A DNA stretch of 64,000 nt from Squalus acanthias. Its lineage: Eukaryota. Below, one piece after another: positions 1 to 5,175 of this stretch. Position 1 is the stretch's first letter; each line of letters opens with the position of its first letter. Under the pieces are notes generated by a model that worked only from the letters and a program-made list of their open reading frames with translations, was not told where the DNA came from and did no database searches. The stretch lies in contig CM059431.1 in NCBI GenBank assembly GCA_030390025.1, positions 137,580,001 to 137,644,000 on the forward strand, given 5' to 3'. The position numbers and the translations under genes were made by a program.

Positions 1-465
1 ATTAAAATAAATGCCCACACGAAGATAGACATGGACTCATAGGAGTCTCAGGATCAGGCTCCCATAGGAAATCGGAATGCAGATTTGGCCGCAAAACTAG
101 CCGTGGAGGAACTTAAACCAGAAGCCGTGTTAAATATGGTCATGACAGCCAGTGGGGTACAGGAAGTGAATATAATGGAGGTACAAGAAAATACTAGTAA
201 AGAGGAAAAGGAGAGATGGAAACAAGCTGGCGCACAGTTACGAGATGGAATTTGGAGATGGGGCCCACGAAACCAGGTGGTGGCACCGGAATGCGGTAGA
301 CAACAACTGATGGGGCTGTACCATGGTGTAACACATACCGGCAGAAGTAACATGTTGCACCTACTGACACAGTACTGGTAGTGGCCAAAGATGGGTCTAG
401 AGGTGGCGAAGTATTGTCACCGTTGTATAATATGCGCTAAGAATAATGTAGGACAGAGATGCAGA
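1..465 (+). pseudogene. pol: First RNase H C-terminus + integrase-type HHCC Zn-binding module
   Basis: Frame +1: IKINAH...GNRNADLAAK, then LYHGVTHTG...W*WPKMGLEVAKYCHRCIICAKNN; in-frame TAG at 40 and 379. Confidence 0.8.
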
Positions 466-469
466 GTTA

Positions 470-1980
470 GAGTAGCAAACCAACTGTGATGGCAGGGGAT
501 ATCGTCTTACACACTCGGCATACACTGGTAGAGATGTTAAATACCGGGAAACTACGGTCAGTTTCCAATATGCGGCGAGCTCGTTGGGAAGCAGTCCTAC
601 TGCCGATAGACCAGACAGTTAAGATAATTCGGGATACAGGGGAAAACCCCGCGGAAGGCATCCTGAGCGAGGGAAGCCCCCATCAGTGCTCAGAGACGAT
701 GGAGATCTAGACGAAACCCTCGTGCAGGACAAACCGCTGGAGGAAGCTCAGATGACACTGTACGTAGACGGGTCAAGGAAATATGTAGAGGGATCTCCCC
801 GGACAGGATGGGCAGTAGTAAATGATCAGTTGGAAACAGAAATGTCGGGAAGGTTAGACGGAGGCTTGTCGGCACAAGTAGCCGAGATAGTAGCGTTAAC
901 AAAGGCGCTAGAATTAGCAAGGGGAAAGACAGTAAACATCTACACGGATAATAGATATGCATTCGGAGTGGTACACGATTATATGACAGCTTGGGGGAGC
1001 AGGGGGTTTGTGACAACTGGAGGGGATCACATAAAACACCAGCAGCGAATAGAGGCCCTCTTGGAAGCCACAAATGCCCCAGCACAAGCTGCAGTAATAA
1101 AAATCAAAGCGCACCAGAAGATACAGAATCAGGAGCAAAAAGGGAACCAGGCCGCTGATCTAGCAGCACAGCGAGCTCTTGAACAAGAAATGGTTGAAGG
1201 GAACGTAGCTAGTGCACAGGTAGAGGAAATAGATATCAGTAAATTGCATGTAGGCGCCCCAGAGGACGAAAGACAGGAATGGTACCGAGTAGGGGGTAGA
1301 TCAAATGAAGAGGCAATATGGCGAAAGAATGGAAAGGTGATAGCCCCCGCGTGCATCAGACAGACACTTTTAGAACTACATCATGGAAAGAATATATGCA
1401 GATGGATGGGCATAAAACAGAAATTCCACATCCCATAGCATCGTCAAAGTTCTGGAATGGTAGAAAGAATGAATCGCACCTTAAAAACTGCGGTAGCCAA
1501 AGCATTGGGGGAAAAACAGCAACGGTGGGTGGATGTGCTACCCACAGTATTAATGAAACTAAGAGCCACCCCAAATCGAACCACGGGCCTATCACCATAT
1601 GAGCTAATGACGGGGAGGGCAATGCAGCTCCCCCCATGGTATAATGACTGGAGGAGAAGATGTGGGTCCCCTAAAGGATAAACTCCGCAGATATGTCCTG
1701 GAAATGAGTAACCAATTAAAATAAATGAAACAGCAAACTAGGAAAAGACAGGAAGAAAGAGATAACGATTTGGAATTGACCGCATTTCCATATATCCCTC
1801 CAGCGAGGACCAAGGTAATGGTTAAGAATCTACCAGGAAAACTCGGGTTCGCCCCAAAAATGGTCGGGACCATATCAGAGTTTAATTAGTGGGGATACGT
1901 GTGCTTGCATTAATATAAAGGGCATGGGACGATGGAAGCACTGGACACAGCTGAAAGCCTATGACCCTTCTCCAATTTAA
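470..1980 (+). pseudogene. pol: pol: RT tether end, RNase H, partial integrase (most of the Zn finger and the N-half of the core deleted) and integrase C-terminus
   Basis: IVLHTRH...RRARWEAVLL (tether); LYVDGS, SAQVAEIVAL, NIYTDNRYAFGVVH, KIKAH, GNQAADLAA (RNase H); QSSGMVERMNRTLK, LRATPNRTTGLSPYELMTGR (integrase); frameshifts and stops. Confidence 0.92.
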
Positions 1981-1982
1981 GA

Positions 1983-2210
1983 ATGGATACACCAGAACAA
2001 GTAGCTTTTGTAGAAAGTGAAGAATATGCTAGACAATATGACGAATGGGAATGGACGCTGACACAAACACTGGTTTGGATAATATGTATTAACTTGATAG
2101 GATATACCTTGGGATATATCCTGAAATATATATGGGAACGGTCCCGTCAACTCCAACCGGTCGAGCAGGAGGAGGGAATCCAAATGATTATGATCGAGGA
2201 ACCAGCGTAA
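1983..2210 (+). CDS. Putative 75-aa single-pass membrane accessory protein between pol and env
   Basis: Intact ATG-TAA ORF starting 2 nt after the TAA at 1978-1980 that ends the pol region; acidic N-terminus, hydrophobic LVWIICINLIGYTLGYIL, acidic tail. Confidence 0.45.
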   Translation: MDTPEQVAFVESEEYARQYDEWEWTLTQTLVWIICINLIGYTLGYILKYIWERSRQLQPVEQEEGIQMIMIEEPA

Positions 2211-2314
2211 TAACAATATTCCATTCACACCCACAGGAAAATAGAATGTATAAGCAACAAAGTGTTTAGGTTGGCGATATAGCCTTTGGGACATTGTTAA
2301 CATAAAGTGATAAG

Positions 2315-3119
2315 ATGAACGTGTTATGCGATATCATGTGTAGTTTGCTTGTTTGTGTAAACATAATATGTAGCCTCGGGAGGACTCAGGCTAGAGTACC
2401 ACCACGGGCCAAAAGAGAGTTACGGGTAAATTGGCAAGGGAATCCATTAACATGGCCCTTGACTATGTGTTGGCAGAAAAAGGGGGAACCTGTGCCCTAA
2501 TAGGTACAGAATGTTGTACCTACATACCAGACAGCTCAGAAGAAATAACTAACTTGGCAGAACACATACAGGAAGAAGTAAAAGAGTTAAAACAACCTCC
2601 GGCATCCACCCTTTGGGGCTGGACAACTGGATGGTTGGGATCACTCAGGACATCAGTAGTACAAGGATTGATTTTGTTCTTTGTTATAATATTAGTGATG
2701 TATGGTCTGGTTTTATTGTTGAAATGTTGCTGCACCCAAATGGCAAAAGATGTTGTTCCAGCCGCACCAGTGGGGCAGGTGTATTACATAGAAATATAGA
2801 AACATAGAAACTAGGAGCAGGAGTAGGCCATTCGGCCCGTCGAGCCTGCTCCACCATTCAATACGATCATGGCTGATCATCCAAATCCAGTACCCTGTCC
2901 CTGCTTTCTCACACCGAATCCCCACATCGAGCCTGCACCTATCCCACCCTATCCCCGTAACCCCACGTATTTAATTCCCCCTAACATATCCCATCCTATC
3001 CCCATAACCCCACATATTTAATCCCCCCCTAACACTAAGGGTCAATTTATCATAGCCAAATCAACCTAACCCGCACATTTTTGGACTGTAACATAAAAGA
3101 TAGATCTCTGTTTATCTAA
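2315..3119 (+). pseudogene. env: env, SU almost wholly deleted; gamma-type TM subunit; interrupted near the 3' end by a SINE/LINE insert
   Basis: Signal-like N-terminus followed by RAKR, then a jump to MALDYVLAEKGGTCALIGTECCTYIPD (ISD + CX6CC), a membrane span and a CCC tail; removing 2791-3090 restores ...YYIKDRSLFI*. Confidence 0.88.
2791..3090 (-). mobile_element. 5'-truncated chimeric HE1-like SINE / CR1 3' tail insertion
   Basis: (catagaaa)n tail and ggccattcggcc CR1 3'UTR in antisense, then a SINE-like body (caatttatcatagccaaatcaacctaacccgcacatttttggactgt); ACATA repeats at 2786-2790 and 3091-3095 as likely TSD. Confidence 0.75.
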
Positions 3120-3629
3120 GAAATGAAAATGCTTATGCGCGGGTAACGTTTGTATTAATGCATGTGTAAAACTTTAGAGATAGTGTAGAATAGGGACAAA
3201 CCATTGATTGCGGCATATGACACAAGAAGAAACAAACAAACAGATGAAGAAGGGAACAACTTTAAGCTACAAGGAATGCGTCTACACACGGAAGAAATGG
3301 ATCATCGATATTTCAAAGAGAAGGACATGTTCATGACAAGTCAGGCGGAGGACGGAGGATAAAGAAATAAAACCGGAAGAGGAGCGGAAGAACCTAACCT
3401 AAATGGTACGAATAGCTCAACAGTCATGATGTGACTGGACTGTGCAGCTCAACCTCTTCCGGGGTGTCTTTCTCCCTCGTTCTCCCGAGCGCGTTCTCAT
3501 TTACATTGGACTGTGAAACAACAATGACATCGTCAAAAGATCTCGTCAACAGAGCATAAGGAACTGTGTGCCGCCGTTATAACCATGGTATGATGGTCCC
3601 CAGGACAAATCAAGCTTTGGCCAGGGACC

Positions 3630-3641
3630 AATAGGAGGGAC
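3630..3641 (+). other. Polypurine tract
   Basis: aataggagggac immediately before TG at 3642. Confidence 0.75.
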
Positions 3642-4187
3642 TGTAAGAGTAAAACAAGAATTAATTGTAATAATGTAAGGGCAAATCAGTTGAAATGTTT
3701 AAGATTAGTTGAACTGCTTAACGGACTATAGTAAAGGTCAAAGTATCTCCCTTAGGCATGGAGACAGGGGTATAATTAGATAAAAGACCAACTTGCTTAG
3801 GCTGCAGTATAGATAATGCAGACACTGCAGAACAAAAATGTGAATCATTGTTTTTCTATAAACTAACCTCGAATAGGTGTAAGAATGAAATCTTGCAGCG
3901 CAGATGGCTGACGAAAATCAAAAGTAAAAAATAAGTTTCGCCAACAGTGTAAAATTCTAATCAAGTTGTTTTTAGAGACCATAAGGGTCGCTTATGATGT
4001 AATAACTGTGCTGAGGTTTGTATTTTCTGGCTTCTGGAAGTATATAAAGAAGCTTGGGTGAGCACTGTTAGATTGAGAAGCTGGTCATTAGGCCGTAGGC
4101 TGTGACCTTTCTCCCAGAGCGCTCTGAATAATAAGCTGTGATATTTTGCTTTAAGACAGACTCGAGTGAATTAATTTTTCACCAACA
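3642..4187 (+). repeat. 3' LTR (~546 bp)
   Basis: Starts TGTAAG after the PPT and ends CCAACA at an abrupt junction with CR1; TATATAAA at 4041; AATAATAA near 4127. Confidence 0.82.
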
Positions 4188-5175
4188 GTATACATTGCAC
4201 TCGGTCCTTTCATCCAAGTCATTAATATAGATTGTAACTAGCTGCGGCCCAAGCACTGATCCTTCTGGCACCCCACTAGTTAGAGCTTGCCAACTGGAAA
4301 ATGATACGATTATCCATACTTTCTGTTTTCTGTCCGTTAACCAATCCTCTATTCTTTTACCCCCAACCCCATGAGCCCTCATCTTACGTAGCAACCTTTT
4401 ATGTGACGCCTTATCAAATGTGTCTTGGAAATCCAACTACAGCACATCCCCTGGTTCCCCTTTATCTACCCTGCTATTTGCATCCTCAAAAAACTCTAAT
4501 AAATTTGTCATATATGATTTCCCTTTCCTTAAACCATGTTGACTCTGTCTAATCATGTTATGTTTTTCTAAGTGCCCTGATACCACTTCCTTAATAGTGC
4601 ATGCCATCATTTTCCCAACGACTGATATCAGGCTAACCGGCCTGTAGTTCCCTGTTTTCTCGCTTCCCCATTTCTTGAATAGCGGGGTCACATTTGTTAC
4701 CTACCAATCTGTTGAGACCGTACCAGAATCGAGGGAATATTGTACAATCACGACCAATGCATCCACTATCACTGCAGCCACCTCTTTTAGAACCCTAGGA
4801 TGTAGGCCATTCGGTCTATGGGATTTGTCAGCTGTTAGTTCCGTTGGTTTCTGAAGTAATTTTTCCCTACAGATATTAATTACTTTAGGTTCCTCACTCT
4901 CATTAGCCCCTTGGTTCACCGCTATTTTGGTGTGCTATTTGTGTCTTCTATTGTGAAGACAGATAAAACGTATTTGTTTAAAGTCTCTGCCGTTTCCGTT
5001 TTCCCAATATAATTTCTTCTGTCTCAGCCTCTATGGGACCAATGCTTACTTCTGTTACACTCTTACTTTTTACATACTTGTAGAAGCTCTTGCAATTTTT
5101 ATTTGTATTGCTAATTTACTGCCATATTCTATTTTGTCCCTTTTTAAATCAATTTTTCGTCTTCCTTTGCTGGTT
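4188..5175 (-). mobile_element. CR1 LINE ORF2 RT fragment (ERV integration target)
   Basis: [40 protein letters not shown] motifs; cut at the LTR end. Confidence 0.9.

Follow-up and report, generated by a model that had tools for sequence, protein, structure and literature searches.

Two distantly related RNase H/zinc-finger segments in tandem in the pol of a decayed endogenous retrovirus from Squalus acanthias

Recombinant, helper-dependent endogenous retroviruses (ERVs) are already known, and recombinants re-integrated with helpers have been described in humans in the accessible parts of Vargiu et al. (2016; PMC4724089), where mosaics of the Harlequin type are attributed to co-packaging and template switching. 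An additional RNase H is known from plant Tat elements, and according to the available portion of Ustyantsev et al. (2015; PMC4408406) this domain is of archaeal type and host-derived, has Arg in place of His, is not accompanied by a zinc finger, and belongs to an intact Pol. Retroviruses themselves possess a dual RNase H, made up of the tether and the RNase H proper (RH), and repeated replacement of RH and of the integrase (IN) has been inferred from trees, as set out in the accessible sections of the work of Wang and Han (PMC7947760, PMC9040795). No published report of a doubled RNase H/zinc unit in a retrovirus was found, within a literature coverage that lacked most subscription journals, Repbase and supplements, and the available parts of PMC2717909, PMC5210030, PMC6894440 and PMC8672886 contain nothing on such a unit.

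The window, meaning the whole stretch of 64,000 nucleotides analysed here, begins inside a retroviral pol, and the element found there is a decayed ERV whose pol has two distantly related RNase H/zinc-finger segments in tandem. Module 1 (1–468, plus strand, frame 1, with two stops read as X) comprises the C-terminal end of RNase H copy 1 (1–99), which is cut by the window edge and has a stop codon at 40–42, the linker from RNase H to integrase (100–285), and a complete integrase HHCC zinc domain with the beginning of the core linker (286–468), with a stop codon at 379–381. The first of these can be aligned with the C-terminal end of RNase H in P0014, P0030 and P0051 and retains the C-terminal His and Asp motifs (NAH...GNRNAD), whilst the zinc domain, which aligns to P0030 and P0031, has an Integrase_H2C2 match at residues 96–149 (Pfam PF17921, E = 1.1e-11) and a spacing, read directly from the sequence, of H-X3-H-X29-C-X2-C. 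After an out-of-frame join (463–489) comes the C-terminal half of the RT connection (tether) domain (474–695, plus strand, frame 3), which is 73% identical to P0014 505–578 and 80% identical to P0010. Module 2 (701–1387, plus strand, frame 2) then consists of RNase H copy 2, which is whole (701–1180; Pfam PF00075, E = 6.2e-22), and a linker with the first half of zinc domain copy 2 (1181–1388), which ends at a cut at 1388. The first-pass annotation had placed an RNase H C-terminus and a complete HHCC module upstream of the tether, and the start of a second RNase H/zinc module downstream of it, and both observations hold, with the two motifs that it quoted lying where it had put them.

Lost at the cut at 1388 is the counterpart of P0014 residues 819–952, in which the zinc domain is completed and the integrase core begins. 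Beyond it, the C-terminal part of the integrase core and the integrase C-terminal domain (1388–1960, plus strand) are interrupted by stops and frame breaks, with 76% identity to P0014 953–1034 and a further match to P0004 483–585. A remnant of the env transmembrane subunit with a CX6CC motif follows (2395–2799, plus strand; TLV_coat, Pfam PF00429, E = 1.3e-5, a score barely above the Pfam cut-off), the bulk of env being gone, and the likely 3' LTR (3642–4187, plus strand) was recognised from the sequence by its TG...CA ends and the purine tract in front of it; no second copy of this LTR is present within the window. The order of a tether followed by a His-type RNase H and an HHCC integrase is that of class I-like (gamma/epsilon-related) ERVs, as is the env transmembrane subunit with CX6CC. 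P0014, from the nearest family, scores 1e-100 against MLV-type RT/RH and 1e-42 against foamy Pol, the window itself having no RT, and no sequence of the snakehead retrovirus was among the matches. Several smaller features accompany the element. The interval between integrase and env (1981–2210) has a short open frame of about 76 residues with one hydrophobic stretch and no Pfam match, possibly an accessory gene, and the broken frames in the roughly 600 bases between env and LTR (3030–3640) may represent further ones. At the end of env (2787–3028) lies a short repeat, likely a SINE, which is present several times in the window; after it come two 45-base direct repeats. Directly after the LTR, on the minus strand (4179–4934), is a decayed fragment that we take to be from a LINE reverse transcriptase.

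The nearest named relatives are from sharks (Pristiophorus and Mustelus). Counterparts of the tether, module 2 and the integrase piece are found, at 60–79% identity, in a shark ERV family of ordinary type (P0001, P0012, P0014). The identity to this family, which includes P0012 from Mustelus asterias (XP_078069418.1), and to P0010 from Pristiophorus japonicus, amounts to 72–80% in the tether, 59–76% in RNase H copy 2 and 79% in the integrase piece. This family has the ordinary order of PR-RT-tether-RH-Zn-IN with a single module, to which module 1 of the window is just 38% identical, and in the closest autonomous family Pol begins at the protease and has one RNase H/zinc module. P0010 (a histidine decarboxylase model) and P0011 (an unnamed Mustelus protein) are shark gene models into which parts of ERVs from this group have been drawn, probably through errors of annotation. 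For module 1, no close relative was found among 1.84 billion representatives, where the 143 matches reached 38–47% at best, and word-index protein searches gave no match. Metagenome contigs, viral contigs and prokaryote genomes yielded no DNA relatives, the phage collection gave only weak matches to phage RNase H, and the Atlas returned unnamed clusters and minor RNase H/H2C2 shares, which are uninformative as to layout.

Profiles of six domains were applied to 206 related proteins, a redundant set with about 15 near-identical cyprinid entries, in which RT occurs together with RNase H in 45 proteins and protease as well in 13. An RNase H before RT, a zinc domain before RNase H, or two RNase H ends were found in none of the 206. 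Because predicted Pol proteins begin only downstream of the gag stop, this survey alone would be blind to a module in the gag frame, but such a module should have surfaced in the scan of 1.84 billion representatives, and none did. P0125, P0132 and P0171, which have a zinc domain ahead of RT, were set aside; they lack a retroviral RNase H and appear to be fused models of Gypsy type. P0183, P0185 and P0193, from the 16-member P0136 cluster, have a gag-like N-terminus in frame with the middle of the tether, RNase H and integrase, and no protease or RT, which may reflect either a parallel RT-less lineage or an artefact of gene modelling.

The two modules are related, as evidenced by a local alignment score of 151 compared with 30 ± 5 and a maximum of 48 in 500 shuffles, which rules out a chance likeness. 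They share 39% identity over 96 columns and give no blastn match to each other at a word size of 7, which rules out a recent tandem duplication, in agreement with the first-pass annotation on this point. Module 1 is about as far from module 2 (39%) as from P0014 (43%) and P0030 (39%), whereas module 2 has 52–54% identity to the latter two, suggesting that module 1 split off before the parting of the family to which module 2 belongs (family B) and the Mustelus family. The domain mapping confirmed both modules, and the trees place module 1 apart from module 2, P0014 and P0030. In a 65-row tree, which took in proteins with an RNase H end and a whole zinc domain and left out 21 mostly near-duplicate ids, the two modules belong to a single starred group (98/93), inside which P0014 and P0030 cluster with module 2 (94/85, unstarred) to the exclusion of module 1. 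A 24-row tree concurs (93/79), with module 1 on a branch of ordinary length; its rows were hand-picked from two neighbouring groups, without the long-branched P0136 and P0148. Module 1 goes on resembling integrase after the zinc finger, in the core linker, as far as the join (alignment to P0030/P0031), and judged on these alignments module 1 looks like the cut end of the ordinary pol of a second family. Distances and trees appear to favour parts from different families. There are counterpoints, as tree support is moderate, an AU test on the 24-row set did not reject modules 1 and 2 as sisters (p = 0.057; the branch separating them is unstarred), and composition fails to separate the parts of the element, which do not differ in the make-up of third codon positions (p = 0.46).

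The junction between module 1 and the tether piece, at about 463–478, is a direct coding-to-coding join with no LTR or repeat. Both sides have the same sense, the joining stretch fits both parents at the protein level, and the tether piece is without its first half and in a different frame from module 1. Frame 1 ends at a stop (487–489) that overlaps a tether ATG (489–491), though this overlap may be due to chance because it is produced by two codons of the tether's own. Of 20 listed sequencing runs none is recorded as RNA, though X11 and X15 may be. Contigs of 4 of the 20 were aligned to window 1–2400, and none contains more than 0.44 of the words, so they represent related copies of the element. 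One of these (X15 record 18, organism B) covers 399–554 with no gaps and so crosses the join, being the only piece among the 32 listed of 1091 that satisfies the 31-letter bridging rule, and three more of the listed pieces run unbroken to 484–490, which is 6–12 letters past 478. In organism A, a contig from X3 with a depth of 548 covers place 492 with 56 letters left to its end, from which we infer that the join is crossed there too. The lowest X3 records have depths of 11–25, depth not being equal to copy number, and the depth of module 1 in two DNA runs (546–4900) is within the range of the remaining element. No alternative form of the join occurs among the matches listed.

Since contigs from two organisms cross the join, it is not private to the window copy and looks fixed in the family; several copies bear the same internal mosaic, all in sense, by observation in organism B and by extension in organism A. 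A private assembly error or private deletion is ruled out by these contigs, and a nested ERV with its own LTR at the join is ruled out by the boundary, where the target-site repeat and LTR expected of a nested insertion are absent. The suggestion in the first-pass annotation that this layout is a family trait is therefore borne out, with organism A counted by inference. Its view that the RT core had been deleted in this copy does not survive, as the join is common to other copies and nothing indicates that RT ever lay between the modules.

Other features differ among copies. For the stop at 40–42, no variant is listed among 40 of 349 rows, whereas places 46 and 48 are listed, which hints that this stop may be family-wide. 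The stop near 380 is not seen in other copies, in which module 1 is hence more open. The cut at 1388 is common to X15 record 22 but not to the X3 and X11 contigs, whose loose ends enter the missing part, suggesting that the integrase was cut later than the join was made, in a sub-lineage. A separate 1716-letter contig (X11 record 13) matches 1388–2000 at about 93%, its first 1105 letters being unmatched to RNase H copy 2 or module 1; this may reflect a third kind of mosaic or simply the limits of the alignment tool.

Taken together, we consider this element to be probably an inter-family recombinant whose lineage depends on helpers, in the manner of Harlequin. Under this reading, the pol of a family A would break off just past its integrase zinc finger and continue, in another frame, from the middle of the family B tether, which would give RNase H and the zinc finger twice and make module 1 the ordinary RNase H/zinc end of the second family's pol. 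The event was probably a template switch, in which reverse transcription of two RNAs packaged together would have passed from the integrase linker of A to the tether of B at a brief stretch common to both. With the join out of frame and the tether halved, no whole Pol could be made and spread would need helpers, so the hybrid would have moved with helper-virus enzymes, and a sub-lineage would later have lost its integrase core through the cut at 1388. Neither module is assigned a function of its own, and the mosaic, which is family-wide, is probably non-functional. The parents of the hybrid were seen neither among the proteins nor among the 24 listed of 162 loose ends, none of which shows module 1 followed by an integrase core or a close tether extending further upstream; among those 24, the only tether with a different continuation is that of an 82% relative (X1 record 2).

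The suggestion of the first-pass annotation that this family may have an extra N-terminal RH-HHCC module before RT is unsupported by the relatives, none of the 45 with RT and RNase H having one and the closest family being single-module. The corresponding explanation is an autonomous parent in which protease and RT were preceded by an additional RNase H/zinc module, the lineage having since lost the stretch between. A family-wide join and a module 1 as abundant as the other parts would fit such a parent, as would P0183 and P0185, apparently RT-less derivatives from the same wider group that are joined at mid-tether, and plant Tat lineages I and II do have an extra RNase H upstream of RT (PMC4408406, in its accessible part). 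We nevertheless think it unlikely, given the relatives just cited, a closest family that starts at the protease, the retention of the core linker in module 1 up to the join, and the absence among 1.84 billion representatives of the close module 1 relative that a gag-frame module in the closest family would be expected to yield. The same layout would result if virus A had inserted in or beside provirus B and a chromosomal deletion had fused the two, the fused locus being copied later by helpers or by locus duplication. Secondary integration is a known cause of mosaics (PMC4724089, in the part available), and the window copy has other deletions and a SINE, but a same-sense, coding-to-coding join at a stretch fitting both parents at the protein level, with no LTR or repeat, makes this origin at the level of the host rather improbable.

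A working split Pol would be a self-copying family in which frame one gives protease-RT-RNase H1-zinc 1, and RNase H2-integrase is made as a second protein by a restart at 487–491. The overlap of stop and ATG is indeed present, copies with an uncut zinc 2/integrase exist (the loose ends at 1388 in X3 and X11), and no other form of the join is among the matches listed, yet the overlap is explained by chance through the tether's own codons, the stop at 40–42 may be common to the family, and a free integrase would lose Gag-Pol packaging, so that we hold this to be very improbable. Least probable of all is that the unit was duplicated long ago in a single lineage and that copy 1 then diverged fast; the AU test leaves sisterhood of the modules unrejected, but P0014 and P0030 are at least as near to module 1 as module 2 is, and the branch of module 1 is not long, making such a history highly unlikely. 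More broadly, that a shark retrovirus lineage captured another retrovirus's RNase H/zinc-finger module and kept it working is a doubtful proposition that we regard with some scepticism, whether the module stood in front of RT or closed a split Pol whose integrase was made as a second protein.

If the element is an inter-family recombinant, retroviruses whose proteins are only about 40% identical in this part can be fused out of register, and the product can nevertheless give rise to a lineage that has many copies and is present in more than one host species. Such an event would also be a tangible way in which retroviral RNase H and integrase domains could undergo the shuffling that has been inferred for them. 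If instead an autonomous parent did have the extra module, its Pol layout would be one for which our searches gave no retroviral example. A captured and working module, if true, would give this retrovirus two integrase zinc fingers and three domains of RNase H type, and would show in progress the kind of RNase H and integrase swap for which trees have been the only evidence so far.

Among described systems, the element resembles plant Tat lineages I and II in having an additional RNase H at an unusual place, which in Tat is upstream of RT (Ustyantsev et al., 2015; PMC4408406, as far as accessible). Module 1 is, however, unlike the Tat domain in being retroviral, keeping its His and lying out of frame, and a layout like that of Tat I/II is not seen, RT being absent from the window and none of 45 relatives having RT downstream of an extra RNase H. 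With the recombinant, helper-mobilised ERVs of the Harlequin type it shares a same-sense mosaic, probably of related class I families, in many copies (Vargiu et al., 2016; PMC4724089, in the portion available). The differences from Harlequin, as far as that portion describes it, are that here the proposed switch is out of register, so that RNase H and zinc domain are doubled, that the parts are about 40% identical in protein, and that recombination is proposed from the internal mosaic. The accessible parts of the work of Wang and Han (PMC7947760, PMC9040795) describe no third RNase H-type domain and no doubled RH-zinc unit. The window shares with the retroviral dual RNase H the tether followed by RH, and a misaligned join such as this one may be one possible start of the swaps of RNase H and integrase.
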